The notes: generated by a model not told the origin, from the sequence alone. 64,000 nt of DNA from Candidatus Woesebacteria bacterium (GCA_050123235.1 JASFHL010000001.1:20651-84650), one strand, 5' to 3'. Positions 840-63,110 are shown, numbered from the stretch's first letter. Translations and numbers: made by a program.

Positions 840-990
840 TTATTATAAGAGAATATTTCAGTCGTTCGCTGCAGCCTTGTTTTTTGATTGTGGGACATAA
901 AGCTCACTCGGTGAAGCTCGGTAGTATATAAAGTGCTAGCTCAATCCCAGCCATACCTCGCTTCAACGCTCAAATATTCTCTTATAATAA
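840..990. repeat. Inverted-repeat-bounded intergenic element, copy 1 of a conserved-core family (candidate structured ncRNA or MITE-like)
   Basis: Perfect 19-bp inverted repeat 840-858 / 972-990 (tttattataagagaatattt...). It encloses a 113-nt core that is ~75% identical to the core at 20159-20263 (agctcacYggtgaagctcggtagta ... tgctagctcaa ... cctcgcttcaa). Confidence 0.45.
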
Positions 991-13849: not shown

Positions 13850-14872
13850 ATGAAAAAATTTTTAAATAACTTCAATCGCTTGATTGGCATTGACTTAGGT
13901 ACTAGTCAGACTCGGATTTGGAGTGACAAAGAAGGCTTAGTGCTGGATGAGCCGTCTTGTTTGGCTGTTGATATTTTGACAAAAAAAGTCTTGGCAGTTG
14001 GGAAGGAAGCCCTGGAGATGAAAGGTAGGGTAGATAAGAAAATCGGAGTTTATTTTCCTATGCAAAAAGGTCAGATTTATGACCTTGATTTAGCTAGAGC
14101 AATGTTGAGAGTTTTTTTACAAAAAATTTTAAAAAGTACTTATTTTTTTAATCCCAATATGATGGTCAGTGTTCCAGCTTTGGTAAGTAAAAATGCTGAA
14201 AGGTTGACTGCTGATCTATTTTATTCTCTTGGAGCTAATCAAGTTTTCACCATCAGAGAACCATTGGTAGCTGCTATCGGAGCTGGAGTACCAATTTCAG
14301 ATGCTTCAGCCTGCTTTATTTTACAAATGGGAGCAGGCATAGTAGAGGGAGCGATTATTTCTTTGGGTAGCCTAATTGACTATCAATCTAGTTTTCAAGC
14401 CGGGAATTTTTTAGATCAACGGATCATTTATGCGGTCAGAAAAAATAAGCAATTACTTATTAGTCAAGAGGCAGCTGAAAAATTAAAAGTCAAGATAGCC
14501 TCAATTTCAGCAATCGACAAGAAAGAGGTTTTGGTGATGGGCAAGGATATTGCTCAGTCTTCACCTAAAGAGTTAAGTATCAACTCTGGGGATTTAATGC
14601 CAGCCTTTGAAAAAATTTTACTTGTTTATATTAATTTATTAAAAACATTGTTATCCAAAGCTCCCCCAGAATTGATAGTTGATGTAATTAACAAGGGGAT
14701 GTTATTGTCTGGAGGTTTAGCTAAACTTGATGGTTTGGAAGAGCATTTAGTAGCAACTCTTGGGGTACCAGTTTCAGTAATTGATAATCCTAAGCTGGCA
14801 GTGATCAATGGTATTGCTACAGTTTTGGAAAATTTGGATGAGTTTAAAGAAAGTTTGGGTTATCAGCAATAA
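13850..14872 (+). CDS. mreB: Actin-like rod-shape protein MreB family
   Basis: 340 aa. Phosphate-1 motif IGIDLGTSQTRIW. REPLVAAIGAGVPISDASACFILQMGAGIVEGAIISLGSL matches MreB EEPMAAAIGAGLPV...GGGTTEVAVISLGG. Confidence 0.75.
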   Translation: MKKFLNNFNRLIGIDLGTSQTRIWSDKEGLVLDEPSCLAVDILTKKVLAVGKEALEMKGRVDKKIGVYFPMQKGQIYDLDLARAMLRVFLQKILKSTYFFNPNMMVSVPALVSKNAERLTADLFYSLGANQVFTIREPLVAAIGAGVPISDASACFILQMGAGIVEGAIISLGSLIDYQSSFQAGNFLDQRIIYAVRKNKQLLISQEAAEKLKVKIASISAIDKKEVLVMGKDIAQSSPKELSINSGDLMPAFEKILLVYINLLKTLLSKAPPELIVDVINKGMLLSGGLAKLDGLEEHLVATLGVPVSVIDNPKLAVINGIATVLENLDEFKESLGYQQ

Positions 14873-20114: not shown

Positions 20115-20130
20115 ATTAATCAGGTATTCA

Positions 20131-20291
20131 AAACTCCCTACAAATAAATATTAGAGTAGTTCGCTACTACATGATATCTTTTTTAAAAGTACAAGGCTCA
20201 CTTGGTGAAGCTCGGTAGTAAGTCGATTGCTAGCTCAAGACCGAACCAGACCTCGCTTCAAAACTCTAATATTTATTTGTAGGGAGTTTTT
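20131..20291. repeat. Inverted-repeat-bounded intergenic element, copy 2 of conserved-core family (candidate structured ncRNA)
   Basis: Perfect 28-bp inverted repeat 20131-20158 / 20264-20291 (aaaactccctacaaataaatattagagt). It encloses a 105-nt core homologous to 859-971. Located between two convergent genes. Confidence 0.45.
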
Positions 20292-20646: not shown

Positions 20647-20905
20647 TGCAGGGGCCTTTCTGAAAAATACTTGTTAATTGGCTTAAAATAATTAAATATG
20701 TCAAAGTTAAACTTTAACTATATTAAAAGTAGCAGAGTAGTGAAAACTAGGTCAAGGGGCAATTTTGATGTATGAAGCTCGGTGTTTGATTTTGACAGTA
20801 TCCTATAATATTGTTATAATATAAAGTTATCTATGTTCCGCGATGCCACCTAGGGTGCACTGCGCGCCTGCGCGGAGGTGGCGAGAAGTTTTGCACAGGA
20901 GGTGC

Positions 20906-21085
20906 ATGATGGATTGGAAGAAGAAGCTTCAAAATTTTTTGGATAGACTCGCATGGGGAGATGAGAGTCCTCCTCCTGCTTGGGAAATGAGGCCCTGGAT
21001 ACCAAGCTGGTTCGATGTGGTCACCAGCTATGGGTGGCCACTCTTAGTACTAGCAATTGTACTATTGCTACTGCGGGGTTGCTGA
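20906..21085 (+). CDS. Small GC-rich hypothetical membrane peptide (W/P-rich, C-terminal TM)
   Basis: ~59 aa (MMDWKKKLQNFLDRLAWGDESPPPAWEMRPWIPSWFDVVTSYGWPLLVLAIVLLLLRGC). Consensus SD aggaggtg 4-6 nt before the ATG. Followed by a strong intrinsic terminator. Local GC is far above the window average. Confidence 0.4.
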   Translation: MMDWKKKLQNFLDRLAWGDESPPPAWEMRPWIPSWFDVVTSYGWPLLVLAIVLLLLRGC

Positions 21086-21097
21086 ATCTCCCACAAA

Positions 21098-21142
21098 AAC
21101 CCCGCCCTCGGCCTAATGCCGGCGGCGGGGAGTCGTTTTTTA
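21098..21142 (+). terminator. Rho-independent terminator of the small GC-rich gene
   Basis: Stem ccccgcc (21100-21106) / ggcgggg (21124-21130) with an inner cggc/gccg stem, followed by gtcgtttttt. Confidence 0.6.
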
Positions 21143-21190
21143 TAAGCCTGTTTTTTAATAGAAAAAGTTATTTTGTGCTAGTTGATTAAA

Positions 21191-21314
21191 TTATATCTGC
21201 TGGAATAATACTCTAAAAAGCGAACCCTTGACGGTAGCCAGAGTTTCTGCAAAGCAGAAGAACATTCTGGCGAGAGTGGGTGAGTCTTTGAGAATATTAT
21301 TCCAGCAGATATAA
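21191..21314. repeat. Inverted-repeat-bounded intergenic element (third such element, distinct core)
   Basis: 20-bp perfect inverted repeat 21191-21210 / 21295-21314 (ttatatctgctggaataata), with partial extension. 84-nt GC-richer interior holds nested hairpins (gccaga...tctggc; ctgcaaagcag). Confidence 0.4.
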
Positions 21315-21468
21315 ATAGAGATATTCAAACTAGCAGCAAAAGTTATTTTTATACTTTTCGTCTTTTTTTCCGTTATTTTTAATTTTAAAAGTAGTTATTC
21401 ACATTTTTATCTTATAATTATTTTAATTAGATCTTATATTATTTTTAGTTTAAAAAGTTGTGGAAAAG

Positions 21469-21512
21469 TCAAAAAAACTCTCTTGACTAAAAAGCCAAGA
21501 GAGTTTTAATTT
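21469..21512 (-). terminator. Bidirectional intrinsic terminator downstream of rplL
   Basis: Perfect 10-bp stem aactctcttg / caagagagtt with 10-nt loop, flanked by an A-run on one side and a T-run on the other. Confidence 0.55.
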
Positions 21513-21538
21513 TTAAATCTATTTTTAAATTCAAAACT

Positions 21539-35900: not shown

Positions 35901-35996
35901 TTGTATAATAGAGTTTATTGCAAAATAAGAGTCTGAGTAGAAGGCTTATCAGTAGTAAATGTAGCTAATTAGATCTTATTTTGTAATAACGATAAT

Positions 35997-36070
35997 GCCT
36001 TTGTAGCTCAGTCGGTTAGAGCGCAGTCTTGGTAAGACTGAGGTCTCGGGTTCGACTCCCGACAAAGGCT
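35997..36070 (+). tRNA. tRNA-Thr (anticodon GGT)
   Basis: 74-nt cloverleaf GCCTTTGTAGCTCAGTCGGTTAGAGCGCAGTCTTGGTAAGACTGAGGTCTCGGGTTCGACTCCCGACAAAGGCT. Anticodon loop TTGGTAA. Confidence 0.9.
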
Positions 36071-39272: not shown

Positions 39273-41180
39273 ATGATGAACATTACTAACACTATTCAGA
39301 ATTTAATCCAGCAGGCTCTGACAGAGTTAGGTTTTACAGTGGAGCAGAGTGAGATCACGCTTGAGCATCCAGCTGACCTTAAATTTGGTGATTATAGCTC
39401 TAATGTGGCGATGGTAAATTACAACCGGTGGGTCCAACAGCTTTCTAATAAAAAAATGCAGTGGCTGGACCGTAATAAGACAAATTCAGATCAGTATAAC
39501 GGTCCCAGAGCCTTAGCCCAAGCTATTGCTGATAAAATCCAGGCGCAACTTGCCAAAGATAAGAAAACAATGATAGCAGAAGTATCTGTAGCAGGGCCCG
39601 GCTTCATTAATTTCAAACTTAGTGACAGTTTTTTCCTGGCTGCCATGCAGCAGCTTATTAAACAAAAGGCAGATCTAATTCCTCTATTGAACAAAAATAA
39701 ACGAGTGATGGTGGAATTTACTGATCCAAATCCTTTCAAAGAGTTTCATATTGGTCATTTATATAGCAATATTGTGGGAGAGTCTTTAGCTAGATTATTT
39801 GAAATCACAGGGGCTAAAGTAAAAAGAGTTTGTTATCAAGGTGATGTGGGTATGCATGTAGCTAAGTCAGTTTGGGGAATGTTGAAAAAAATGGATCAAG
39901 CAAAGTTGGAGCTTCAGGATCTGGAAAAATGGCCGCTTAATAAGAGAGTGAATTTTTTGGGTCAAAGCTATGCACTAGGTGCTAATGAATACAAAGGAGA
40001 TGAAAAGACCCAAGAAAGAATAAAGAATCTAAACTACTTAATATATATCTGTGGTCAAGAGAATTTAGAAGAATTAAATAACTGGCAAGCACAAGTTGAT
40101 TACAAGCAATATCTCAAAGAGAGTGGTTTTGATTACCAAGAAGTTAAGCGTGTCTACCAAGTAGGCAGAGCTTGGAGCCTGGAATACTTTGAGAGTATTT
40201 ACCAGAGATTGGGTACTAAGTTTGATGACTACTTTTTTGAGAGCTTGGTGGGAGAGTTAGGAATTAAAGTAGTTCGCGAAAATATCAAAAATAAAATTTT
40301 TCAAAAAAGCAAAGGCGCTATTATTTTTCCAGGAGAAAAATATGCTTTACATAATCGAGTGTTTATCAACTCATTGGGCTTACCTACTTATGAGGCCAAA
40401 GAATTGGGCTTAGCTATAGAGAAGAATAAAAGGTGGCCCTATGATTTATCTATTCCTGTTACTGGTAATGAAATTGATGAATATTTCAAAGTTTTATTAA
40501 CTGCCTTAAGGCAAGTGAAACCAGAGCTGGCCAAAAAAACTGTTCACATCTCTCACGGCATGGTTAGACTACCAGAGGGTAAAATGTCTAGTAGGACTGG
40601 CAAGGTTCTAACTGGTGAATGGATGCTGGATAAAGCAAAGGATTTGGTGAAAAAAATTCTTGATGAAACAAGGACAGAAGTCCCAAGTGCTGAAAAAGAA
40701 GATGTGGCAGAGAAGGTGGGCCAGGCAGCTATCAAGTTTGCTTTACTTTCAACAGATTTGGGTAGAAACATTGCTTTTGCTTTTGATACTTCTTTAAAGT
40801 TTAGTGGCTTTTCCGGTCCTTACCTGCAATATACTTATGCCAGGTGTCAAAGTGTTTTGAGAAATGCTAAGTTAAAATCAGAGACAAAACTAGCTTCTAA
40901 GTTTAGTGATATTAAGCAAGAAGAAAAAGCTTTGCTAAGAGTGATCTATCAGTTTCCTGAGGTGGTATTAAAGGCAGCTAGCAACTTTATTCCTCATCAT
41001 CTTGCTACTTACCTTTTTGAATTAGCTCAATCTTATAGCAGTTTTTATAGTAAACATCAGATCATTAAAGCAACCACTCAAGAACAAAAGCTCTTTAGAC
41101 TGCAATTGACTCAGGCAACAGCTTTGATTTTGAAAAAAGGTTTGGGTTTATTGGGTATCCAAGTAGTAGAGAGGATGTAA
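39273..41180 (+). CDS. argS: Arginyl-tRNA synthetase
   Basis: 635 aa. Class I HIGH motif (FKEFHIGHLYSNIVGESLARLFE). KMSSRTG (KMSKS-type). DALR-like anticodon-binding C-terminus. Confidence 0.9.
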   Translation: MMNITNTIQNLIQQALTELGFTVEQSEITLEHPADLKFGDYSSNVAMVNYNRWVQQLSNKKMQWLDRNKTNSDQYNGPRALAQAIADKIQAQLAKDKKTMIAEVSVAGPGFINFKLSDSFFLAAMQQLIKQKADLIPLLNKNKRVMVEFTDPNPFKEFHIGHLYSNIVGESLARLFEITGAKVKRVCYQGDVGMHVAKSVWGMLKKMDQAKLELQDLEKWPLNKRVNFLGQSYALGANEYKGDEKTQERIKNLNYLIYICGQENLEELNNWQAQVDYKQYLKESGFDYQEVKRVYQVGRAWSLEYFESIYQRLGTKFDDYFFESLVGELGIKVVRENIKNKIFQKSKGAIIFPGEKYALHNRVFINSLGLPTYEAKELGLAIEKNKRWPYDLSIPVTGNEIDEYFKVLLTALRQVKPELAKKTVHISHGMVRLPEGKMSSRTGKVLTGEWMLDKAKDLVKKILDETRTEVPSAEKEDVAEKVGQAAIKFALLSTDLGRNIAFAFDTSLKFSGFSGPYLQYTYARCQSVLRNAKLKSETKLASKFSDIKQEEKALLRVIYQFPEVVLKAASNFIPHHLATYLFELAQSYSSFYSKHQIIKATTQEQKLFRLQLTQATALILKKGLGLLGIQVVERM

Positions 41181-41344
41181 AGATATTGACTGCAAATAAA
41201 TCTTAGACCGTTAAAGCGATGTCTGGTTAGGATTGCATTAGCAGTCAATATTTTTTAGATTTCTACACTGGATCAGGAATTTAACAATTTTTATGATAAA
41301 ATATCTCTCTTGAGTAAAAAATTTTAAAAGAATAAGGAAAAATC

Positions 41345-43233: not shown

Positions 43234-43306
43234 AGGGCTGTGATGTTAATGGCTAGCATGGTGGTCTCCAAAACCACTCGTGGGGGTTCGAATCCCTCCA
43301 GCCCTG
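43234..43306 (+). tRNA. tRNA-Trp (anticodon CCA)
   Basis: 73 nt. Acceptor AGGGCTG/CAGCCCT. Anticodon stem GTGGT/ACCAC with loop CTCCAAA. T-arm GGGGGTTCGAATCCCTC. Followed by terminator hairpin agagctatgtatggctct + T-run. Confidence 0.8.
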
Positions 43307-43381
43307 CAAATTAAAAAGAGCTATGTATGGCTCTTTTTAATAAACTAATGTCTCTTGCATCATTACTGTTATAATTAATTT

Positions 43382-44641
43382 ATGAATGGAAAAGAAGTAG
43401 ATAGATGTGGTTTGTTGCACTTGGGCAAAGAACAACAAAAAAAAATTTTATTTTCATTACTTCATCAAAAAGAAGATTTAACTAGATTAATTCCAAGAAA
43501 AGAGGCTTTATGTATAGGAGAACATTTAGAAGCAGCAGGTTTAGTTGCTAACAAATGGAGTATCTGGAATGCTTTCTCGGTTTTATTTAAACCACTTGCT
43601 CCGAATAGTTCAGTTGCTGAGGTAAATTGTAATTTGATTGATCAAGAATATAAATTGGGAGGACTTATAGATAGTAATTTACCGTTAAGAGCTTTAACTC
43701 ATGTTTTAAGAAATTATTTTGTTGCTGGTTTTAGAAAAGAAATGGAAAACAGAAGTTTTTCTAACTTAGCTCAGCCAAATTTAGTTTCATATGTTACTAA
43801 TAGAATCGATCGTTCTCCTATGGATCCAGAAAATGCAGTTTTATCTATATCAAGCTTTGTTCCTCCTACTTATGGAGTATTTAATGTAGGAGTAGGAGCT
43901 ATATTTTATAGACAAAGTCAGTCTGGTAATCCTGAAATTTTAGTTGGTGAAAGAAGGAAAAGAGAAGGCAAATGGAGCCCAAATGGTTTGGTGATTCCTT
44001 CGGAAACGATGAATATTGTTTGTCCTAATTTAACTTATTTGCAAGATTATAATTTTTCTTCAGAAGAAACAATTGGTTTAGAGAATTGGTCTTGGGATTT
44101 ATTAGGCTGCATGTATGACTTAGCAGAGTTACCTGCTGAAGTTTTCTTGAAGAGACAATTAATGAGTATGTTATTTGCTGGTGAGGTTATGTCCTCACAG
44201 TGGAATAGAGCTTATACTCTTCAGGGTTTCTTACATACTTTAGTTCGAATGATGATAGAAGAATTAGTGGGTTTTTCTATACCGTCAAAAAGTCAGGCAA
44301 TACAAGAGTCAGACATCAAAAGTTTGCGGGAAAGTTATCTTACTCTACGTCAAGTATTTACAGAATCTAGTCACAGATTAAGTAATTATATTGCTGAAAA
44401 ATCGAGTTTATTGACTATGTATCTTGATATTTCATCTGGGGTGCCTTGGCTTGTACCCATAATTGCTTTACCAGTAAATGATGTACTAGGAACAGAGTTA
44501 GGTGCTTTAGTTTTAAATTCAGGACAATGGCACAAAGAATTTGATGGCGAAGCACGGTGGGTAGCTTGTGATAGTGAAGAATTAGTCGCTGAAGGGCCTA
44601 GATTTGCAGCGAGAAAACTTTTGGAGAAGGAATCTATTTAA
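43382..44641 (+). CDS. Hypothetical protein (module 1 of tRNA-Trp-associated array)
   Basis: 419-aa ORF. No recognizable motif. Bounded downstream by tRNA-Trp-3'-half-like repeat R1. Confidence 0.4.
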   Translation: MNGKEVDRCGLLHLGKEQQKKILFSLLHQKEDLTRLIPRKEALCIGEHLEAAGLVANKWSIWNAFSVLFKPLAPNSSVAEVNCNLIDQEYKLGGLIDSNLPLRALTHVLRNYFVAGFRKEMENRSFSNLAQPNLVSYVTNRIDRSPMDPENAVLSISSFVPPTYGVFNVGVGAIFYRQSQSGNPEILVGERRKREGKWSPNGLVIPSETMNIVCPNLTYLQDYNFSSEETIGLENWSWDLLGCMYDLAELPAEVFLKRQLMSMLFAGEVMSSQWNRAYTLQGFLHTLVRMMIEELVGFSIPSKSQAIQESDIKSLRESYLTLRQVFTESSHRLSNYIAEKSSLLTMYLDISSGVPWLVPIIALPVNDVLGTELGALVLNSGQWHKEFDGEARWVACDSEELVAEGPRFAARKLLEKESI

Positions 44642-44730
44642 TGCATAATTTTGCTTGGAGATAAATACAAATAGGCTCCAACATCCTTCGTTAGTCCTTT
44701 ATAAATAGTGTTTGCATTTTTTATTAAAAT

Positions 44731-44807
44731 TCCACTCGAGGTAGGTTCGAACATCGTCCACTAAGCCCTGTAGATGATAAAAAGAGCCATGCATGGCTCT
44801 TTTTTTA
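44731..44807 (+). repeat. Degenerate copy of tRNA-Trp 3' half + terminator hairpin (R1; a weaker copy also at 44671-44700)
   Basis: tccactcgaggtaggttcgaacatcgtccactaagccctg + agagccatgcatggctct + T-run. Compare the tRNA-Trp 3' region ccactcgtgggggttcgaatccctccagccctgca + agagctatgtatggctct + T-run. Confidence 0.6.
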
Positions 44808-44827
44808 ACGCTTGAGTATGTGAGTCA

Positions 44828-45544
44828 TTAAAAATTTTTCATCCATGAAGGCATTTCATCACCTAATTGAGCTTGCATTTTTGTTCTCCACTGTTGTGTT
44901 TCTGCCTTATCTCTTGCTGCTTGTTTTGCCTCAATTGCATCGCTTCTTTTTTGTAGATCTAAATATTGTTGTCTGGTTTGTTTTACAATTGATTCTGTTC
45001 CATAAATTTCTTCATAGGCTTTATCATGATAGGTAATTCCTGTGAGTTGATATGGTTTTCCTTCTCCTGCCTGAGTTTCGATTAATTCTTTGAGTTGTTG
45101 TCTAGTTCCTATAAAAACATGATTGTGTCCCACTAAATATTGACCAATACTGGGATCAATAATAATTTCCACTTCTTCTTCATCTATCACTATTAATTGA
45201 CGTAAGAATATGTGCGGATTGTAAACATCACTGATGTCATCTACGATAGCGTTTTGGCAACGATCAATATTAATTCCCATTTCAATAAGATTTCTCTGAA
45301 GTTCTGAACTTAAAGTATCACATTTTGACCAAAGTAGATCTCTATCAATGTAGTCCGAATCGACTTGTTCTGGTATTGTTGAAAGCTGTTTTTTAAATAT
45401 AAGACTTCCATCCAAAGCTCTTTCACCTACACCTAGTTTTTCTTGAAGGGCAATTTCAACTAATTGTCTTAAAACTTCAATAGCTTTTCTGATTTTTTCA
45501 TTTCTAGATAAAATTTCAGCTGTTTGTTTTTGTTCATCTGACAC
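44828..45544 (-). CDS. Hypothetical acidic protein (module 2)
   Basis: 238-aa ORF with no recognizable motif. Lies between repeats R1 and R2. Confidence 0.4.
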   Translation of the reverse strand: MSDEQKQTAEILSRNEKIRKAIEVLRQLVEIALQEKLGVGERALDGSLIFKKQLSTIPEQVDSDYIDRDLLWSKCDTLSSELQRNLIEMGINIDRCQNAIVDDISDVYNPHIFLRQLIVIDEEEVEIIIDPSIGQYLVGHNHVFIGTRQQLKELIETQAGEGKPYQLTGITYHDKAYEEIYGTESIVKQTRQQYLDLQKRSDAIEAKQAARDKAETQQWRTKMQAQLGDEMPSWMKNF

Positions 45545-45602
45545 TTAATCAGTCTAAGTAAAAAATGGTCAAGTTTCAAGAAGACAGTAAATTATAGAAA
45601 GC

Positions 45603-45644
45603 TCCACTCGAGGTAGGTTCGAACATCGTCCACTAAGCCCTGCA
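45603..45644 (+). repeat. Degenerate copy of tRNA-Trp 3' half (R2; weaker copy at 45747-45775)
   Basis: tccactcgaggtaggttcgaacatcgtccactaagccctgca, identical to R1 over 40 nt. ctcgag palindrome duplicated at 45605 and 45657. Confidence 0.6.
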
Positions 45645-45824
45645 GCGCATTTTTTACTCGAGCAGATATCCTATAAAAATAGAAGAGACGGAAGGAATTG
45701 GATTGAATTTTTTGCGTTTTTGTTCTCATTTATCAGCCCTTTTTAATAGGTTCGAGCGTTGTTTACTTAGACTTTTTTCGAATGGAGTTTTAAGTTTTAT
45801 GAATTAGCATGCTATAATTTTTTT

Positions 45825-54620: not shown

Positions 54621-55598
54621 TTGTTTTGGTTAAAGTTGGGGTATAATTTAGCTATGATTCGGGAACGAATAGGTCAAGCTAGGGCAACTAGCCCAGAAGG
54701 AGAATTTAAGCTAGAAGATTTATGTTACATGGCTAGAGAACTCGACTCAGTAGTCTGGACTGCAAAAGACTTTCCTAGACAGCATAGGCCTGATGTTAGA
54801 GCATTAGTACCAGGGATTAGAATAAGAGATTTTGATCGGCTGGGCTCTCCTCTTGAACTTCATCCTAGGATAAAGAAACAATTTAAAATGAATACATTGA
54901 GAACTCTTAAAGCTTCAAGCGCTGTTTTTGTTTTCAAGAAGATCGCTTATTATGATCCTCAAACAAGGCAAATATTCATCCGGCCAATGGCATTATCATT
55001 TCAAAAACAGAGACTGCAAAGGATTCTTGCTCATGAGTTCTCAGCTGATAATAGCGACAGACTAATGATTATTCAGCCCGGGAATTATACTGATTTTCAA
55101 AGAAAAAAAATTCGGCCCCTTTTAGAAATTCTATTTACCAAAAAACATCGTCCGAGAATGGCTCAAACCCATATTGAAAAAACAGGCTATCGAGAAACAT
55201 TATTTCAAGGTCAATTTGCAATTAGTGATATTTATCCAAGGGAAGTAATTGAGTTGTCAGAAATTTATCATTGCTTGATGGAGTTGATTAGCATGCAGCT
55301 TTTTCAACGAAATGGAGATGTAAAGGCTTTCGATCTTGATATCCAGAGTGGACGGTTGCAGTCACTAGGAGTAATGGAGTATCCTCGTTTTGAGGATATT
55401 GCTTACAAGGCTTTCAGAGTTATAAACTGGAGAACATTATTAGATGCATTTAAAACTGAGGATATTTTTGAAACACTGGCAATACTAGAGACTAGCTCTT
55501 CAAGGTATGGCAAGGGTGTTTGTAATGAGTTGATAAGGGCTAGTAGGCTTGATGAAGGAAATGTATTAGCTCAAAATAAGATGTTTTTTGATTTGTGA
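54621..55598 (+). CDS. Hypothetical protein, divergently adjacent to the radical SAM/HhH gene (possible partner DNA-metabolism protein)
   Basis: 325-aa ORF. No motif recognized by eye. The partner role is inferred only from the conserved pairing of such radical SAM proteins with a second DNA-metabolism gene. Confidence 0.3.
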   Translation: MFWLKLGYNLAMIRERIGQARATSPEGEFKLEDLCYMARELDSVVWTAKDFPRQHRPDVRALVPGIRIRDFDRLGSPLELHPRIKKQFKMNTLRTLKASSAVFVFKKIAYYDPQTRQIFIRPMALSFQKQRLQRILAHEFSADNSDRLMIIQPGNYTDFQRKKIRPLLEILFTKKHRPRMAQTHIEKTGYRETLFQGQFAISDIYPREVIELSEIYHCLMELISMQLFQRNGDVKAFDLDIQSGRLQSLGVMEYPRFEDIAYKAFRVINWRTLLDAFKTEDIFETLAILETSSSRYGKGVCNELIRASRLDEGNVLAQNKMFFDL

Positions 55599-55622
55599 AA
55601 TTTTTTGATTTAATTATTAATT

Positions 55623-56072
55623 ATGAAAAATGAAACTCAGTCCGGAAATATTCTAAGTCATGGTCTAGATAAATGTATTTTAGGTTTTTCATCTGGTTTT
55701 ATATTTTTACTTTCTAGAACTGAAACTGAGATATCAAATCTAGTAGCAAGGTTAGTGGGAGGACATTATCATCGAAGTATTATTGAGCATGGTTTAACTG
55801 CTTTTTGTATGGGATTATTGGCTAATGGCCTATGTGAATTTTTTATTATAGAGTCAGATTCTGATGAAGAGTATCAAGAGTTTTCTCGACGAAAATTGTC
55901 TTTTATTATTGTTTTTGTTTATATTGTTTTATTATTGACAGTAGAACTTTGTCAAACAGTCAAATTAAGTCGGGAATTTCAATGGGAGCAATTAGGAGGC
56001 ACAGGGGTAGGTTTAGCTTCATCTTTATTTGCGATAGCTTTATTAGAATTATTACGAAATAGTGGTAAATAA
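55623..56072 (+). CDS. Hypothetical integral membrane protein
   Basis: 149 aa with 3-4 hydrophobic segments (FIFLLSRTE; LTAFCMGLLANGLCEFFII; IIVFVYIVLLLTV; GLASSLFAIALLELL). Confidence 0.35.
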   Translation: MKNETQSGNILSHGLDKCILGFSSGFIFLLSRTETEISNLVARLVGGHYHRSIIEHGLTAFCMGLLANGLCEFFIIESDSDEEYQEFSRRKLSFIIVFVYIVLLLTVELCQTVKLSREFQWEQLGGTGVGLASSLFAIALLELLRNSGK

Positions 56073-56078
56073 AAAGAT

Positions 56079-56858
56079 ATGAAAAAATTCAGAAAATATG
56101 GAACCAAGCCTTTTAAGCTAGCACTGCTTCATGGCGGTCCAGGAGCTGCCGGAGAAATGGCTGCAGTGGCCAAGGAGCTATCTAAAGAGCATGCTGTTTT
56201 AGAACCATTGCAAAGCAAAACTAGCATCCAGGGTCAAGTTGAAGAACTAAAAGCTATTTTGCAGACAAACGCTGACTTGCCTGTCACATTGATTGGCTAT
56301 TCTTGGGGAGCTTGGCTAGCTTTTATTTTCGCAGCTCAATATCCTAAATTTGTTAAAAAATTAATTTTGCTAGGCAGTGGGGCGTTTGAGGAAAAATATG
56401 CCAAAGATATTATGAAAGTTCGCTTGGCCCGTTTGAGCAAAGCAGAGAGGAAAGAAGTAGATTCTTTGTCTAAAGATTTAGAAAGGGCGGAGCCAGAGCA
56501 AAAAAATGCAATTTTTGCTCAATTTGGTAAATTAATGACTAAGGCAGATTCATATAATCCTTTGCCTGATAAAAATAAATCGATTAATTGTCGCTATGAT
56601 ATTTATGAAAAAGTTTGGCCAGAAGCGGCAGAGTTAAGAAGGACTGGTAAGTTATTGAAGCTGGGCAAAAAGATCCAGTGCCCAGTGGTAGCAATTCATG
56701 GCGATTATGAACCACATTTACCTGAAGGGGTGAGAGTTCCTTTAGCTAAAGTTTTAAAAGATTTTAAATTTATCCTTTTAAAAAAATGCGGACATACAGT
56801 CTGGCTCGAGAAAGAAGCAAGAGCTAAGTTTTATGCTTTGCTGAAAAAAGAACTATGA
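56079..56858 (+). CDS. Alpha/beta hydrolase
   Basis: 259 aa. HGGPG oxyanion region, nucleophile elbow LIGYSWGAWLA (G-x-S-x-G), C-terminal KCGHTVWLE (catalytic His). Confidence 0.65.
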   Translation: MKKFRKYGTKPFKLALLHGGPGAAGEMAAVAKELSKEHAVLEPLQSKTSIQGQVEELKAILQTNADLPVTLIGYSWGAWLAFIFAAQYPKFVKKLILLGSGAFEEKYAKDIMKVRLARLSKAERKEVDSLSKDLERAEPEQKNAIFAQFGKLMTKADSYNPLPDKNKSINCRYDIYEKVWPEAAELRRTGKLLKLGKKIQCPVVAIHGDYEPHLPEGVRVPLAKVLKDFKFILLKKCGHTVWLEKEARAKFYALLKKEL

Positions 56859-56939
56859 TTTCTTTGATCCATAGCTAAGATTTTAGCCTGGGAGGCTGCT
56901 AATAGCCCTTATATTCAAAGGCCGTTTAAGAACGCAACT

Positions 56940-56968
56940 AAAAAGCTCCCGGATGAACCAGGAGCTTT
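56940..56968. terminator. Terminator-like hairpin between convergent genes
   Basis: aaagctcc-cggatgaacca-ggagcttt: 9-bp stem with A/T-rich ends. 19 nt past the stop of the minus-strand RRM gene. Confidence 0.4.
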
Positions 56969-56986
56969 CTTAATTTTAAGATAATT

Positions 56987-57337
56987 TTATCTTGAATAAT
57001 TATCTCTTCTGGGCCTGAAGTCTCTTCTTGGACCTCTTGGACCTCTGGAATCTCTAGGAGCTTGAGGTCGAGCAATGTTAACAATTAACTCTCTTCCTTC
57101 AACTTCCATGCCATTGCTAGCCTCCTCAGCTGCTTTAGCATCTTTTTCCTCTTTAAATTCAACAAAAGCAAAACCTCTAGATCTACCAGTTGCTCGGTCA
57201 ATGATGAGTTTAACTGAAGCTAATTCACCATATTCACTGAACATATTTGTGAGTTCATCCTCGCCTAAGCTAAAGGGTAGGTTACCTACAAAAAGTTTGC
57301 TTTTATTTTGTTGTGCTGTGTCACTTGGACTGAACAT
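56987..57337 (-). CDS. RRM-type RNA-binding protein with Arg/Gly/Pro-rich C-terminal tail
   Basis: 116 aa. RNP2 KLFVGNLPF and RNP1 RGFAFVEF. Tail PRDSRGPRGPRRDFRPRRDNYSR. Confidence 0.8.
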   Translation of the reverse strand: MFSPSDTAQQNKSKLFVGNLPFSLGEDELTNMFSEYGELASVKLIIDRATGRSRGFAFVEFKEEKDAKAAEEASNGMEVEGRELIVNIARPQAPRDSRGPRGPRRDFRPRRDNYSR

Positions 57338-57574
57338 GCTTGTCTTTCTTCTTTCTCCAATTTTTTGGAGAAGATTATTAATAACTTAACAGTGTAATTT
57401 ATCACTGTTTTCTCTGGAAAGTAGTGTTGAAGATGGGAACTTATCGGCTTGATACCGTGATCACCTGTGCATCAAGCACTAATTACAGATATATAAAAAT
57501 ATATATTTATATTATACCATGGTATTTGTAAAGCTACTAGATGACTATAGTGGCTCAGCTAAAAAAAGATTAAA

Positions 57575-57928
57575 ATGATCACTATGAACGAAAATTTACC
57601 ACAAGCTCCAAAAAGCAATGCGCAGACCCAAAGTATTTATGATGTGAGTTTAAGCACTATCTTTGGGCGTAATTTTTTGGCTGGTATGAGCCGAGCTTTA
57701 GGAGGGATTTTTATCTATCTGCTTTTTTTAATTTGTCTATTTTTGATTTTAAAATCAATCTTTTGGCCTAAACTAGAGCCATACTTAGATTCCTATCAAA
57801 AAGCAATGCAGTCAATTGAACAACTAGAAAGACAAAGCGAAGTTTTAAATTCTTTGCAAAAAAAAAGCAACGAAGTGGTAGATCAAGAACAAGTAAATAA
57901 TTTACTTAAAAAACTGGGAGAACTGTGA
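57575..57928 (+). CDS. Hypothetical small membrane protein
   Basis: 117 aa. One TM (IFIYLLFLICLFLILKSIFW). Stop overlaps the GTG/ATG start region of the downstream response regulator. Confidence 0.35.
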   Translation: MITMNENLPQAPKSNAQTQSIYDVSLSTIFGRNFLAGMSRALGGIFIYLLFLICLFLILKSIFWPKLEPYLDSYQKAMQSIEQLERQSEVLNSLQKKSNEVVDQEQVNNLLKKLGEL

Positions 57929-58602
57929 GATTGTTGATGGTCGAAGACCAAGTTGCGCTGGCAAAAATTGTAAAGAATTCTTTTAAAAAATCATTTGTAG
58001 TAGATTTAGCTCAGACAGGCAAAGAAGCTTTATACCAAGCTAGCGTGACTGACTACCAAGCGATCATCTTGGATATAGGCTTGCCAGATGTAGATGGTTT
58101 TACTGTTTGTCAGCAACTAAGATCAGCAAAGATTGATTGCCCGATTTTGATCCTGAGCGCTCATGGTAAACTAAGTGAAAAGGTCAGAGGTTTAGATCTA
58201 GGCGCTGATGATTATTTGACTAAGCCATTTGAGCTGCTAGAGTTACAGGCCAGGGTGAGGGCCTTATTAAGAAGAAAAACGAAATTGCTGTCGTCTAAAT
58301 TGACTCTAGGAGCACTAAGTCTCGATTTTGAAAAACGAAAAGTAGCATATCAAAATATTGATATACCTTTGAATAAAAAAGAGTTTTTAATTCTGGGATT
58401 ATTAATGCAAAACCCTGGGCGTATTTTTAGTAGGGAGGCGATCTTAGAACAAGTTTGGCCAAACCCATATTCCAGTTCTAGTAACTTAGTTGATGTTTAT
58501 ATTAGTTTTTTAAGAAAAAAAATTGATAGAAGATTTGGGGTGAAGTTTATAAGGACGGTGCATGGGAGAGGGTATAGGGTGGTGGGGATGAAGGAAGATT
58601 AA
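57925..58602 (+). CDS. OmpR-family two-component response regulator
   Basis: 225 aa. Receiver LLMVEDQ...DYQAIILDIGLPDVDGF...KPF. Winged-helix output domain ending TVHGRGYR. The start may be GTG 57925 or ATG 57937. Confidence 0.8.
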   Translation: MRLLMVEDQVALAKIVKNSFKKSFVVDLAQTGKEALYQASVTDYQAIILDIGLPDVDGFTVCQQLRSAKIDCPILILSAHGKLSEKVRGLDLGADDYLTKPFELLELQARVRALLRRKTKLLSSKLTLGALSLDFEKRKVAYQNIDIPLNKKEFLILGLLMQNPGRIFSREAILEQVWPNPYSSSSNLVDVYISFLRKKIDRRFGVKFIRTVHGRGYRVVGMKED

Positions 58603-58609
58603 GGAAATT

Positions 58610-59272
58610 ATGAACGATAGAGATAAAAAAATACTACTAAAATTAAAAAAGATAATAAAGAAAAGATTTATCAATGAGGCGACGGGGCATGATTGGTTTC
58701 ATATGGAGCGGGTGTTACAAATGGCAGTAAAGATTTCGGAGGAAGAAAAGCCAAGTGATATTTTTGTACTTGAAGCTGCTTCTTTATTACATGATATAGC
58801 TGATTATAAATTTTCTGATGGTGATGAAAAAATTGGATTATTGGAAGCTAGAAGGATTCTTCAAAATTTAGGCGTGGATGAAAAAAAAATAAAGCATGTT
58901 TGTCAAATAATAGATAGTGTTTCCTTTAAAGGTCTGAAAGTAAAAACAAGAGTAGAAACTCTAGAAGGTAAAATTGTTCATGATGCTGATCGCTTGGATT
59001 CAATTGGAGCCCTAGGAATTGCTAGAACTTTTGCTTATGGAGGCAGAATGGCTAGAATACTACATGATCCTAGGATAAAACCAGTTAAGCATAGTTCTTT
59101 TGAAGATTATAAAAAAAAGCAAAGTACGACAATTAACCATTTTTATGAAAAGTTACTTTATATCAAGAATACTCTCTATACTGATTTAGCAAAAAATATA
59201 GCACAGTCAAGACATGATTTTATGTTACAGTTTTTAGAAAAATTTTATAAAGAATGGGATAGTAAAGAATAA
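58610..59272 (+). CDS. HD-domain phosphohydrolase
   Basis: 220 aa. H...HD motif: WFHMERVLQMAV ... LLHDIADYKF ... HDADRLDSIGALGIARTFAYGG. Confidence 0.75.
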   Translation: MNDRDKKILLKLKKIIKKRFINEATGHDWFHMERVLQMAVKISEEEKPSDIFVLEAASLLHDIADYKFSDGDEKIGLLEARRILQNLGVDEKKIKHVCQIIDSVSFKGLKVKTRVETLEGKIVHDADRLDSIGALGIARTFAYGGRMARILHDPRIKPVKHSSFEDYKKKQSTTINHFYEKLLYIKNTLYTDLAKNIAQSRHDFMLQFLEKFYKEWDSKE

Positions 59273-59274
59273 AT

Positions 59275-60570
59275 TTATAATTTTTTGATCATAGAAAATT
59301 CTTCTAAGGCTTTAAGGAAGACAGATGTTTTAAGAATATTATCATTCATTCCTAGAAAAATTTTTTCATTTTTTGCTTTTTTAAAATATTTATCTTTTTG
59401 ATTTTTGTTGTTTTTAATATGGCATATTAAACTGAATCCTATGTTATTCCATAACATTGCGCCAGCTCTTCTATGTGCTTTGTTTTCTAAATTGATGCTT
59501 TTGGAGAAATATTTTCCTGCTAGTGGAAGATTATTTTCTTGTAAGGCAATCCCTCCTAATCTGGTACAAATTATTGATTGTTGAGGTAAATCTTTGATTT
59601 TGATAGTAATATTTAGGGCTTGGTTTAATATTTTTTTTGCCTTTTTAAATTGCTTCTTTAGCCAGTAGGTTTCACCTAAATAAGTTAACGTATCTCCTAT
59701 TTCTTCTAGTTCATTTAGATGATTCAGCTCATATAAAGATTGTTGAAAAAGATCAATAGCTTTTTGATATTTTTCTTTTGCTTGATAAATTTTTCCTAAA
59801 CGTAATTTAGCTAGAGCGTAAATTTTTTTTGTTTGTTGGTTTGAACTTATAGAAAGGCCTATTTGAGCATACTTTTCTGCTTGTTTAAGATCACCTCTCC
59901 AGAAATATAACCACGATAATTCTCTAATAGAGCAGGCTGCTCTTTGATGAGGATCATTTAATTTTAAGGACAAGTTATATACCACCCGCCCCAGCCTCTC
60001 TACATCATCCCACCTACCTGTATCCCAAAGAAAAATTCCCAAATAGTTCCAGATCTCAATTACTGGTTGATAGATGTGGAATTTAAGACTTTTATCAATG
60101 GTGTTCAAAATATCAGCCAGTTGTCTTTCAATTTCATTGTAATAATAGATATTGCCTCTTTTACCTTGTTTTAGAAAGTCGAGGTAATAGCTTAATACTT
60201 TTCTTAATTTGACTATAGTTTCAATTTGTCCTTCCAATTGGAATTTAATTTTCAATTGTTTTTGGAAAAGAAAGTTTTTTTCTGTTTCAGTTAGATAACC
60301 ATAACCTGCTGCTTCACAGAGTTGATTAGCTTGATCAGCTGTATTAAGTCCTTCGTTTTCAATAAAAATTTTTAAAATATAAATCAAGGTTTCTCGGTCA
60401 CAGGGTAGTCTAGCGCCTCTTTGCCAATGTGAATAAATGCTTTCGCTATAGATTAAACCTTCATCTGCCATCGTATCAGCGAATTCTGAGAGAGTGGCGA
60501 AGCCTGATTTCAAACGATATTTTTTAAAGAGTTTAGCAAAAGTTAGATAAGGATTGATATGGTTCTTCAC
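59275..60570 (-). CDS. Tetratricopeptide-repeat protein, possibly with N-terminal HTH
   Basis: 431 aa. Multiple 34-residue TPR-like units (W-LG-Y-A-F-P pattern, e.g. AKLRLGKIYQAKEKYQKAIDLFQQSL). Confidence 0.55.
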   Translation of the reverse strand: MKNHINPYLTFAKLFKKYRLKSGFATLSEFADTMADEGLIYSESIYSHWQRGARLPCDRETLIYILKIFIENEGLNTADQANQLCEAAGYGYLTETEKNFLFQKQLKIKFQLEGQIETIVKLRKVLSYYLDFLKQGKRGNIYYYNEIERQLADILNTIDKSLKFHIYQPVIEIWNYLGIFLWDTGRWDDVERLGRVVYNLSLKLNDPHQRAACSIRELSWLYFWRGDLKQAEKYAQIGLSISSNQQTKKIYALAKLRLGKIYQAKEKYQKAIDLFQQSLYELNHLNELEEIGDTLTYLGETYWLKKQFKKAKKILNQALNITIKIKDLPQQSIICTRLGGIALQENNLPLAGKYFSKSINLENKAHRRAGAMLWNNIGFSLICHIKNNKNQKDKYFKKAKNEKIFLGMNDNILKTSVFLKALEEFSMIKKL

Positions 60571-60752
60571 TGTTAATTATATTTTAATTGATGTTTAGCG
60601 CTTTTCTAATGAGTAATCTTTACTTATTAGATTTTTATATACTTTAAACAGAAAAAATCAGTTTTTGATTGTCAAAATCGATGACTTTATGGTCATTCTA
60701 TTTTTACATTTGTCTTTGTTTAATGTTTTTGTCTAAAAGTTTTATTTAATTA

Positions 60753-61502
60753 ATGAAGAAAAAAAAAGTAAAACAACAGCTCAGTTTATTGCATGACTTA
60801 GTTAATCCACTCAGTAGCACAATTTTGATTCTGGAAAAAATGAAAGCAGAAGGTAATTTCGATTTATTACCAAGTCTAAAAGAAAATTTGTCCGAGTTAG
60901 AGATTTCTTTGCAAAAGATGATTGATAATATTAATTTAGCCAAAAAACTTTTTGTGGAAGAAAGTGAAGTTAAATATTTTTCTCTCAATCAGGCGATTAC
61001 TAAGTGCTTAAAATTGATTGCTGTAAAGGCAAAAGAGCAGCAGATTGGCATTTGTTTTATTGCTCAAGAGCAAATCAGGCTCTATGGTGATGAGCTTAAA
61101 TTAATTAGAGTAATTACTAGTTTACTAGATAATGCGGTCGCAGCTTATAAACAGGTTTCAATGAGATCCAAATCTAAAGCTAAACGTCGGATTCAGGTCA
61201 CTGTTAGCTTAGTTGCTAATGGAGTTAATATTAGCATCCAAGATTGGGGTGGTGGTATCAAAAAAGAAGATCAGGCTTTGATTTTTTATCCTTTTTTTAA
61301 TGCAGGAAAAAAAACTGGACCTATTCTTTCTAAAGCAAATTTATTTGCTCTTATTAAAAAGCCAGGATCATATAAGTCACAGCGATCAGGGATCAGCCTT
61401 TTTATTTGCAAAAATATTATTGAAAACGATTTCGAAGGCAGTATCACTTTTACTAGTCGCTGGCGCCATGGGACAACTTTTTTTATTTTTTTAGCTCGTT
61501 GA
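60753..61502 (+). CDS. Soluble sensor histidine kinase core (HisKA + HATPase_c), no TM or sensor domain
   Basis: 249 aa. H-box LSLLHDLVNPLSS. N-box LLDNAVAAY. G-boxes IQDWGGGI and SGISLFICKNIIE. Confidence 0.65.
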   Translation: MKKKKVKQQLSLLHDLVNPLSSTILILEKMKAEGNFDLLPSLKENLSELEISLQKMIDNINLAKKLFVEESEVKYFSLNQAITKCLKLIAVKAKEQQIGICFIAQEQIRLYGDELKLIRVITSLLDNAVAAYKQVSMRSKSKAKRRIQVTVSLVANGVNISIQDWGGGIKKEDQALIFYPFFNAGKKTGPILSKANLFALIKKPGSYKSQRSGISLFICKNIIENDFEGSITFTSRWRHGTTFFIFLAR

Positions 61503-61520
61503 TTGACTTTTGTTTTATGT

Positions 61521-61684
61521 TAACCTGAATCTCGAAATAGTCCCTTGGCTAATTTCACTCTATTTGGCAATTTTAGCTATTTTCCTCTTCCTCAAGTAGC
61601 TACGGCTACTATTGTCATCTGAAAATGCTAAAATTACTCAAATATATTATAATTACCTCAAGGTTTATTTCGAGATTCAGGTTA
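61521..61684. repeat. Inverted-repeat-bounded intergenic element (fourth such element)
   Basis: Perfect 19-bp inverted repeat taacctgaatctcgaaata (61521-39) / tatttcgagattcaggtta (61666-84) enclosing 126 nt. It exactly fills the gap between the histidine kinase stop and the next gene's ATG. Confidence 0.4.
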
Positions 61685-61685
61685 T

Positions 61686-63110
61686 ATGCAAAATATTATG
61701 AAACGTAAGATTAAGAATCTTCCAGCAACTCCTAGTTTTTTAAAAAGTTTTACGCCTTCTTTTATTCTTTTAAGTTTATCTTTAAGTGCTGCTGAGTTGG
61801 TTTTATGGCCTTATTTAGCAGCTCATTATGGTTTAGGTTTGTTGTGGGGAGCTTTGCTTGCTCTTAGTTTTCAGTTTATTCTCAACACAGAGGCGATGCG
61901 TTACTCTCTTGCTTGGGGAGAGTCTATTTTTTTAGGTTTTAGAAAAATGAGCCGTTTCTTACCTTTGTGGTTTATCATTTCTACTTTAATACCTTGGTCA
62001 TTGCCTGCTTTTGCTGCTGTAGCTAGTCAGATCTTAGCTCAGTTTGCAACTGATTTTAGTGAGAAGTTTTTGCTGATTTTTTTCTTGGTGATGAGTGGCA
62101 TCATGCTGAGTGCTGGCCAGCTTATTCATCAGCTTATAGAAAAGTTTCAAAAATTAATTATTTTCATAACTTTGCTCCTGATTGTTTTTTTTGCTTTTGT
62201 TTTAAGTAAATCTATAGATTGGAATGAGGCAGTTTTGGGCTTGCTAGCTAGAGGAAAGAGTTGGTGGCTATTTCCTAAAGGTATTAGTTTGGCTAGTTTT
62301 TTAGCAGCTTTTGCTTATGCTGGCGCTAGTGGTGGCAACTTTAATCTGGGTAAATCTTATGATATTAAAGAAAAAGGTCTTGGGATGGCCAAATATACTG
62401 GCAAGATAAGGCCTTTGTTTGCAGATGGAGCAAAAGCAATGGCAATTGAGGGTCGGCGTTTTGTAGATACTCCTAGAAATCGCCGACAATGGCAGAAATG
62501 CTGGCATTTAATTAATCAAGGACAGTTTTTTATTTCCTGGGTTTTGGCTTTATTGATGATTGTTTTATTATCAGTCTTGGCAAAAACTTTGCTTTTTGGC
62601 AAAGAAATAACAGCAGGCTTAGGCTTTTTTTATACTGAGCTTACTGTGATTCAAGCTCGTTTGGGTTCTAGTCTTAGCCTTTTATTTTTATTAATGGTAG
62701 TATTAATGCTTTTTTTTGCTCAAGTAAAAGTATTTAAATCTTCATCCAGAATAGTAAGCGAAAATTTATCATTACTGTTTTATAGAAAAGGCAAGAAAAT
62801 CAATTTATCTCTTGGTTTTTATCTTGCTTTATGGTTGCAGATTTTTGCTGGGATGGCAATTTATTTATTGCTGTGGAACGATGCTATGTTTTTGTTAATT
62901 TCAGCTGCTGTTTTAAATGCAGCTGTGATGGCCATTGCTTTTCCGCTCGTTTATTTTTTGAACAACAAAAAGTTGGCTAAGTTTTATCAACCAGCAAGCT
63001 GGCGGAAATATACTATGCTCATAGCTTTTATAATTTTTCTATTTTTAATTGGAGTAATACTGGTCAATTTTATTTCTTCTTACCCATCAAGCGTCTTCCC
63101 AGCCATTTGA
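61686..63110 (+). CDS. Polytopic integral membrane protein (possible transporter)
   Basis: 474 aa with ~10-11 hydrophobic segments. No family-specific motif recognized with confidence. Confidence 0.45.
   Translation: MQNIMKRKIKNLPATPSFLKSFTPSFILLSLSLSAAELVLWPYLAAHYGLGLLWGALLALSFQFILNTEAMRYSLAWGESIFLGFRKMSRFLPLWFIISTLIPWSLPAFAAVASQILAQFATDFSEKFLLIFFLVMSGIMLSAGQLIHQLIEKFQKLIIFITLLLIVFFAFVLSKSIDWNEAVLGLLARGKSWWLFPKGISLASFLAAFAYAGASGGNFNLGKSYDIKEKGLGMAKYTGKIRPLFADGAKAMAIEGRRFVDTPRNRRQWQKCWHLINQGQFFISWVLALLMIVLLSVLAKTLLFGKEITAGLGFFYTELTVIQARLGSSLSLLFLLMVVLMLFFAQVKVFKSSSRIVSENLSLLFYRKGKKINLSLGFYLALWLQIFAGMAIYLLLWNDAMFLLISAAVLNAAVMAIAFPLVYFLNNKKLAKFYQPASWRKYTMLIAFIIFLFLIGVILVNFISSYPSSVFPAI

Follow-up and report, generated by a model that had tools for sequence, protein, structure and literature searches.

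Two long inverted repeats and a third, shorter one lie between genes in the stretch of Candidatus Woesebacteria DNA analyzed here (64,000 nucleotides; referred to as the window, to which all positions refer). The first is in the spacer between an M16 peptidase gene (stop at 800) and ndk (start at 1072), with arms that start 40 nt past the peptidase stop. The second is between convergent genes for a WecG-type glycosyltransferase (stop at 20114) and an HTH_17 protein (stop at 20320), its arms starting 16 nt past the WecG stop and, on the other strand, ~30 nt past the HTH stop. Both of these contexts are as described in the first-pass annotation of this DNA. The third is between the argS stop codon (41180) and rpmG (41345), and its arm overlaps the argS stop itself. 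All three copies (3/3) begin 0-40 nt past a stop codon, and each of the two intact copies runs in the sense direction of its upstream gene.

These elements are a real, genome-specific stem-loop repeat family with three related copies within the window, two of them full (852-978 and 20147-20273) and one shortened (41179-41255, minus strand). The first-pass annotation had reported two copies; the repeat nature stood and the count did not, given the shortened copy at 41179-41255. Its location for copy 1 (840-990) was right and that for copy 2 was off by one, with arms spanning 20130-20290 and not 20131-20291. The copies and their arms are as follows.

852-978, plus strand: copy 1 unit, 127 nt, delimited by alignment and per-segment identities; in order, inner arm AATATTTCAGT, GTTCGCT, a 30-nt variable spacer (871-900), conserved block 1 (901-927), a 5-nt variable loop (928-932), conserved block 2 (933-967) and inner arm GCTCAAATATT
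833-861: 5' arm of copy 1; perfect over 840-858, outer part (833-851) specific to this copy, inner part (852-862) common with copy 2
969-997: 3' arm of copy 1; perfect over 972-990, with no T-tract behind it
20147-20273, plus strand: copy 2 unit, 127 nt, equal in length to copy 1
20130-20157: 5' arm of copy 2; perfect over 28 bp, begins with AAAA, outer 17 bp specific to this copy in comparison with copy 1
20263-20290: 3' arm of copy 2; perfect over 28 bp, ends with TTTT and is followed by a further T
41179-41255, minus strand: copy 3, shortened; its arms (41237-41255 and 41179-41197) match at 17/19 positions

The perfect closing repeats measured 19 bp in copy 1 (arm sequence TTATTATAAGAGAATATTT) and 28 bp in copy 2, as had been claimed. 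The arms of copy 1 stretch to 29 nt at 90% complementarity (833-861 with 969-997). The spacer separating the arms is 107-113 nt in copy 1 and 105 nt in copy 2. Perfect inverted repeats with a spacer of 40-290 nt were found four times in the window, all of at least 19 bp, compared to an expectation of 0.04 for repeats of at least 16 bp in first-order Markov simulations. Two of the four belong to hairpins unrelated to the family, I2 (21189-21316) and I1 (61515-61690). In 1.31 Mb of DNA from Patescibacteria and other loci, there were just eight perfect inverted repeats of at least 16 bp.

An independent Logan assembly of this organism, made from short reads, was 100% identical to the window over the whole of copy 2 and over positions 906-990 of copy 1 (the contig begins at 906); it thus adds no strain variation and held no evidence of the opposite orientation. 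The ends of this contig (SRR11698124_7564) fall at 906, near the centre of copy 1, and at 21264, near the apex of a separate hairpin, I2. No repeat of at least 31 nt that would explain either break was found in the window. A drop in coverage over long hairpins, or the presence of near-identical copies elsewhere in the genome, is a possible cause.

Conserved and variable segments of the repeat unit

Copies 1 and 2 have in common an exact 17-mer, GGTGAAGCTCGGTAGTA, which occurs twice in the window compared to 0.04 occurrences expected. Local matches between the two copies were 46 nt at 85% and 33 nt at 82% identity, and the best core block gave a blastn E-value of 2e-6. Identity was 70% over the whole interior (74/106) and 81% over its 3' 68 nt, close to the ~75% over ~80-100 nt estimated earlier. 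Both units are exactly 127 nt long, and each has an 11-bp terminal inverted repeat (AATATTNNAGT ... ACTNNAATATT) around an interior of ~105 nt. Identity between copies 1 and 2, segment by segment, was as follows.

Outer arms: 40-47%, which is background for AT-rich DNA
Inner 11 bp of each arm (AATATTTCAGT vs AATATTAGAGT): 82%, in register
CGTTCGCT / AGTTCGCT segment: 7/8 identical
29-30-nt spacer, with one alignment gap: 40%
Conserved block 1: 89%
5-nt loop: 2/5 identical
Conserved block 2: 81%

The closing repeats of the two copies had been described as unrelated in sequence. This is correct only for the outer 8-17 bp and not for the inner 11 bp (AATATTNNAGT), which by their sequence appear to behave like a conserved terminal inverted repeat. 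The hexamer AATATT sits on the inner boundary, on both sides, of both full copies.

The mosaic of conservation, in which blocks of 81-89% identity stand beside a spacer of 40%, suggests purifying selection on part of the interior. Uniform decay of a passive repeat gives neither such a mosaic nor two units of an equal 127 nt. A sequence constraint, whether imposed by a protein, by an RNA partner or by the machinery of dispersal, probably acts on some of the interior. Reading of the sequence found no reading frame common to the copies in the core, and a small ORF within the core was rejected because the copies share none.

The motif AGCTC occurs three times within the conserved blocks, in copy 1 and in copy 2. 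Together with inverted repeats whose inner 11 bp are conserved around a ~105-bp segment of constant length, and with the HTH_17 gene that adjoins copy 2, these motifs are compatible with a site that acts as DNA in protein binding or recombination, such as an invertible segment or an operator-like platform. We consider such a site very improbable. Copy 2 is flanked by two gene 3' ends, where a switchable promoter would have nothing to drive, and the opposite orientation was absent from the Logan assembly over copy 2 and 906-990. No invertase gene was seen, and copy 3 has no AGCTC motifs. An IHF site was also rejected, as WATCAANNNNTTR is unmatched inside the unit.

A shortened third copy

A profile built from the two full copies detected copy 3 on the minus strand (nhmmer E 1.7e-7). 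Of the interior, this copy retains the 3' third alone (CAATCCTAACCAGACATCGCTTTAACGG); the AGCTC motifs are missing, and so is the 5' partner of an internal pairing, TGAAGC/GCTTCA. Its 3' arm holds TCTAAKATTTATTTGYAG in common with copy 2, and the 3' arms of these two copies are identical at 16/20 positions up to ...TTTGYAG and at 3/8 thereafter. The whole of copy 3 folds as one stem of ~27 pairs. Two 3'-side substitutions that are found only in this copy, one from C to G and the other from T to G, each make a G-C pair with the retained interior segment. This pattern looks like ongoing palindrome-building.

Pairing in the closing stem and folding of the interior

The closing stems had been read as covariation, and their compensatory differences as the signature of selection on RNA structure. 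The stems do differ between copies 1 and 2 and yet stay paired: in the consensus fold, 10/22 aligned closing-stem pairs are changed on both sides. The conclusion drawn from this was not upheld: the covariation is genuine as a pattern but no good evidence for RNA-level selection, given an unfolded interior, stems free of G-U pairs, sharp edges of homology and inner arms that resemble a terminal inverted repeat. In the perfect stems, all of the pairs (47/47) are Watson-Crick and none is G-U. Stems that are selected as RNA normally show G-U intermediates, a point discussed in PMC8794818.

Folding was compared with that of shuffled sequences. When the arms were included, both strands folded far below the shuffles (z -3.5 to -7.6), and all of the stability of the whole element is supplied by the closing stem. 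The interior lacks a thermodynamic structure signal and folds no better than shuffled sequence: for the interior alone, the plus-strand z values were +1.66 and +0.86 and the minus-strand values -0.32 and -0.15, and the conserved 73-nt part scored -0.4 to -1.7. The interior pairs predicted numbered 16, of which 14 were invariant, one had a one-sided change and one a two-sided change, a count that has no statistical power with two sequences. Two and a half sequences from one genome are too few for statistics on covariation. Two internal pairings were examined individually.

912-965, plus strand: long-range pairing TGAAGC/GCTTCA (912-917 with 960-965; in copy 2, 20206-20211/20255-20260)
922-938, plus strand: candidate hairpin B, UAGUAU-AUAAA-GUGCUA (922-927/933-938; in copy 2, 20216-20232)

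The long-range pairing, which had been pointed out before, is indeed present in both full copies; it is invariant and hence uninformative. Hairpin B is the sole internal helix with a double change (U.G to A-U), and 3/5 of its loop bases differ between the copies. Because of its G-U pairs, it can fold on the plus strand only. This predicted hairpin is the single hint of structure at the RNA level.

The repeat could encode a structured noncoding RNA, either a cis-acting 3'-UTR element or a small RNA, in which a conserved domain of ~70 nt, carried on a double-stranded closing stem of variable sequence, is offered to a partner (protein or RNA) and selection on the RNA keeps the stem paired. The uneven conservation, with its 29-30-nt spacer (one gap) and identical unit length, would fit such an RNA, as would the double-changed stem pairs, none of which is broken in the perfect parts, the changes and strand preference of hairpin B, and the sense orientation of the full copies downstream of a gene. 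We judge this reading to be possible and on the unlikely side. The interior folds like shuffled sequence, and the other internal pairs, including TGAAGC/GCTTCA, are invariant save for one terminal A-U/G-U pair. The absence of G-U pairs from the 47 perfect stem pairs also counts against an RNA, as do the lack of a conserved promoter or terminator and the results of searches (no Rfam match at E<=10; no homologue in 1.31 Mb by nhmmer or covariance model, or in scans of sequence collections). Copy 3 has dropped the conserved domain while its stem has been kept and even improved. Finally, long perfect double-stranded stems are cleaved by RNase III and are unusual for stable bacterial RNAs.

Searches for known families and homologues

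A search of the whole window against Rfam 15 at gathering thresholds returned six tRNAs and nothing else. At E<=10, both copies gave chance matches to snoRNAs and miRNAs alone (13-16 bits), in agreement with the earlier failure to recognize 6S, SRP, tmRNA or RNase P motifs by eye. ARAGORN found no tRNA or tmRNA at the copies. In exact-pattern scans, four patterns taken from the conserved blocks had no matches in collections of genomes, metagenomes and viral contigs, and blastn of the core against phage and plasmid collections gave chance matches only (E>=1).

For related DNA, we used a sample of 80 loci from Patescibacteria and others (1.31 Mb), fetched via the orthologous M16 peptidase. The first-pass annotation had proposed to search related CPR genomes with a covariance model. 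In the 80 loci, nhmmer and the two-copy covariance model (R1) detected ordinary terminator hairpins and no homologue, and the third copy came from within the window. The reach of this absence is limited by sampling, because the nearest sampled M16 peptidase relatives are only about 52-65% identical, indicating that the lineage is poorly sampled. The proteins of this Candidatus Woesebacteria MAG form singleton 90% clusters.

The repeat family belongs to no known RNA family and is no classical MITE. Other identities were tried and rejected. A tRNA-derived origin is contradicted by the matches to tRNA-Thr, of which the D-arm-like one falls on one strand and the T-arm-like one on the other (z ~2.5-2.8 after many tests). 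REP/REPIN elements are high-copy, imperfect but conserved palindromes of only 20-40 nt that go with a RAYT transposase; the conserved part here is the interior and not the palindrome arms, and no Y1 transposase was seen in the annotated neighbourhoods. Retron, 6S RNA, Y RNA and inverton each fail on anatomy or context. Hairpin I2 (21189-21316) was considered as a family member; the covariance model matches its closing stem only, and its interior is unrelated.

Edges of homology and the possibility of insertion

Homology between copies 1 and 2 ends abruptly after AATATT, and that between copies 2 and 3 after TTTGYAG, with the DNA beyond still forming an inverted repeat. These sharp edges are based on short segments (Fisher's exact p ~0.04-0.07 by our own count). 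No direct repeats resembling target-site duplications were found, by reading of the sequence, next to any of the three copies. A palindromic AATATT duplication would be indistinguishable from a terminal repeat. There was no transposase or recombinase Pfam among the genes called at ~906-21264, ~29273-51180 and 50753-63205, which together cover ~55 kb of the window. The earlier statement that the element argues against a transposon with conserved terminal inverted repeats was thus borne out in part: there are no target-site duplications and the repeat is no classical MITE, but the inner 11 bp do resemble such terminal repeats (82%).

Edges of this kind, with inverted-repeat DNA outside them, might also be left by insertion of a small, non-autonomous mobile element into the middle of existing palindromes or terminator hairpins. 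The outer stems would then be the split halves of the target and not part of the element, and the AATATT at the inner boundary on both sides of both full copies might be a palindromic target duplication. Every copy is at a place where a terminator would be expected, copies 2 and 3 show an A-tract / stem / T-tract form in their outer arms, and several loop-less palindromes in the genome (I6, I9, I10, I15, I16 and I18) are potential targets. We regard this origin as improbable. The junctions have no unpaired loop remnants, so that a perfect loop-less palindrome would have been needed as target three times, and no empty-site palindrome like the joined arms was found in the window. The arms of copy 1 are not terminator-like, and the neighbours annotated with Pfam over ~55 kb of the window include no transposase or recombinase.

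Two further arrangements that involve integration were rejected. Copies 1 and 2 as att-site repeats bounding a 19-kb island are contradicted by the content of the 19 kb, which is housekeeping genes (ATP synthase, Mur ligases), and by repeats that are only ~80% alike. An integron attC site is contradicted by outer ends that do not fit the R''/R' boxes (RYYYAAC ... GTTRRRY), by a conserved centre with variable ends, which is the reverse of attC, and by the housekeeping neighbours.

Origin of the arms and probable role at gene 3' ends

The explanation we prefer, with about even confidence, is a lineage-restricted, dispersed stem-loop repeat at gene 3' ends, whose arms are kept and extended by processes acting on DNA and which probably works as a terminator or 3'-end hairpin when transcribed. 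The homologous unit of 127 bp has its own terminal inverted repeat, and beyond it every copy shows a copy-specific, perfectly complementary extension of 8-17 bp. The main candidate for the process is template switching during replication between the arms of the inverted repeat, which would homogenize the arms and push them outward into the flanks; stepwise compensatory substitution under RNA-level selection is a less likely source of the stems. A single template-switch event is known to be enough for a perfect stem, for 'compensatory' changes at several bases or for the lengthening of a stem (PMC8794818, PMC10710096), and template switching also homogenizes and expands inverted-repeat arms (PMC13100816). 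Such an origin of the arms is suggested by pattern only, and with three copies and no outgroup the ancestral states are not reconstructible.

Processes acting on DNA are favored for four reasons: the 47/47 Watson-Crick pairs without G-U intermediates; the abrupt ends of homology while the inverted repeat continues beyond; the loss of the conserved domain from copy 3, which nevertheless has a rebuilt stem of ~27 pairs; and the presence in the window of two other long hairpins, I1 and I2, with perfect outer arms of 19-20 bp and unrelated interiors. The tendency to form hairpins is thus a property of the genome and not only of the repeat family. The uneven conservation of the interior counts against the preferred explanation, as a passive repeat does not account for it. 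So do the sense orientation of both intact copies, the double-changed hairpin B with its variable loop, the lack of a T-tract behind copy 1, and the failure to find a transposase, a recombinase or a target duplication.

The copies would have dispersed in the past and now lie directly behind stop codons, where read-through by RNA polymerase would give a very stable hairpin at the mRNA 3' end. This hairpin may act as a transcription terminator or as a protective structure at the 3' end, and at copy 2 it would act in both directions. By analogy, we infer that a terminator or 3'-hairpin role is the most plausible. The stem of copy 2 is followed by U4-5 on both strands and has the A-tract / stem / T-tract look of a bidirectional terminator between convergent genes, and that of copy 3 is followed by U6 on the plus (argS) strand. 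The stem of copy 1 has no T-tract and is therefore not a canonical intrinsic terminator. Consensus scans detected no promoter- or terminator-like signal common to the copies; the terminator scan was of a simple type that cannot score loops of >8 nt.

A more speculative proposal, which we hold to be doubtful, is that the interior (~70-105 nt, unfolded) is a functional module displayed on a long perfect duplex of arbitrary sequence. It could be an RNA specific to Patescibacteria, with the double-stranded stem as a handle for processing or recognition and the 30-nt variable segment as a guide-like region that confers specificity, or a mobile element of a new kind, homing to palindromic terminators at their centre, each insertion inheriting a new stem.

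Other hairpins and features in the window

Hairpin I2 (21189-21316; 128 nt) has a perfect outer 20 bp within 37-nt arms that are 84% complementary, and its interior is unrelated to the repeat family. It folds at -59 kcal/mol on the plus strand (z -9.3) and -56 on the minus strand, has no Rfam match, and sits in a stretch of ~890 bp (20647-21538) that is free of called genes. Hairpin I1 (61515-61690), present once in the window between an HATPase_c gene and the next gene, is rod-like and 170 nt long, with a perfect outer 19 bp and 64-nt arms at 72% complementarity; its folding energy is -64 kcal/mol for the plus strand and -71 for the minus strand (z -11 to -12). Two further intergenic hairpins, at 14572-14683 and 35906-35997, have AT-rich closing stems and large loops (z ~-2.8 and -3.1). 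The latter, whose 16-nt arms are 94% complementary, is found immediately upstream of tRNA-Thr. These two add to the impression of a genome rich in long-stem intergenic hairpins.

The segment 20840-21140 is GC-rich (48%) within AT-rich DNA. It opens with a GC-rich hairpin (gccacctagggtgcactgcgcgcctgcgcggaggtggc) and continues with an AGGAGG site, a short ORF (MMDWKKKLQNFLDRLAWGDESPPPAWEMRPWIPSWFDVVTSYGWPLLVLAIVLLLLRGC) and a strong terminator (21095-21140), and it has no JGI gene call. From its sequence, it could be a gene for a small membrane protein with a leader structure. An 11-mer at 20771-20783, GAAGCTCGGTG, also in the gene-free stretch and 480 nt from copy 2, resembles the most conserved block, GAAGCTCGGTA; this likeness is probably due to chance (blastn E about 2).

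Three more copies of the 3' part of tRNA-Trp (43234-43307) follow downstream of it, starting at 44742, 45614 and 46194 (whole region, 43234-46262). Each of the three has a 5-nt insertion in the T-loop region and lies behind one ORF. A copy of the tRNA-Trp terminator trails those at 44742 and 46194 and is absent at 45614. The arrangement looks like repeated integration at the tRNA 3' end, with att-type duplications.

Significance of the repeat family

The genomes of Patescibacteria are very small and contain little DNA that is repeated or non-coding, and for this reason the retention of several perfect-stem hairpin elements of 130-170 nt at gene ends is mildly unexpected. If the elements act as terminators, they would inform on transcription termination in a lineage in which it is unstudied. 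If the interior were a functional RNA or a palindrome-homing element, that would be new, which the present evidence does not show. There is also a caution of method. When two paralogous hairpins differ in a fully 'compensatory' manner, the differences alone do not count as evidence that RNA structure is selected, because template switching at the DNA level yields an identical picture.

Comparison with known systems

Many families of bacterial stem-loop repeats have been described, 92 of them by Cozzuto et al. (PMC2267715). Like BOX, ERIC and the Cozzuto families, the Woesebacteria repeat combines conserved modules with variable segments, has paired ends that close the structure, is intergenic, and has an uncertain function that is possibly exerted as RNA (PMC2267715; PMC3049150). 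Those families have tens to hundreds of copies and conserved pairing modules, in contrast to the three copies here, in which the closing stems have diverged to background.

There is also a likeness to MITEs such as the Correia elements of Neisseria, in size (~130-160 bp), terminal inverted repeats, intergenic location, the occurrence of truncated or internally deleted variants, and the long hairpin that would form if transcribed. MITEs have terminal repeats conserved across the family, direct target-site duplications and usually a parent IS element. In the repeat described here, by contrast, the inner 11 bp alone are conserved, and neither a target duplication nor a parent element was seen. 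Bacterial MITEs are reviewed in PMC2229807 and PMC10969869.

Hairpins made by template switching, through quasipalindrome correction or expansion of inverted repeats, resemble the arms described here in their perfect Watson-Crick stems, multi-base 'compensatory' changes and outward extension, and in the rebuilding of a stem following deletion, as in copy 3. Template switching differs in being a mutational mechanism and not an element family. Its documentation comes from rRNA, miRNA and yeast promoters and not from Patescibacteria, and here it is suggested by the pattern of differences.

SPRITE of pneumococcus is a terminator-like interspersed repeat with an 18-bp duplex, enriched at the 3' ends of coding sequences and without a recognizable target duplication (PMC3049150). 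Both it and the Woesebacteria repeat are small, non-coding and interspersed, have a long duplex (18 bp in SPRITE, 19-28 bp here), lie near the 3' ends of coding sequences and between convergent genes, lack a clear target duplication or empty site, and have a proposed role as terminators. In SPRITE, conservation as a repeat is that of the stem sequence itself, and a long U-rich tract comes after it, whereas the Woesebacteria repeat has a copy-specific outer stem and carries a conserved, unfolded interior of ~105 nt in the loop; a T-run follows only 2/3 of its copies, and only three copies are known. SPRITE is the nearest described analogue of the Woesebacteria repeat.
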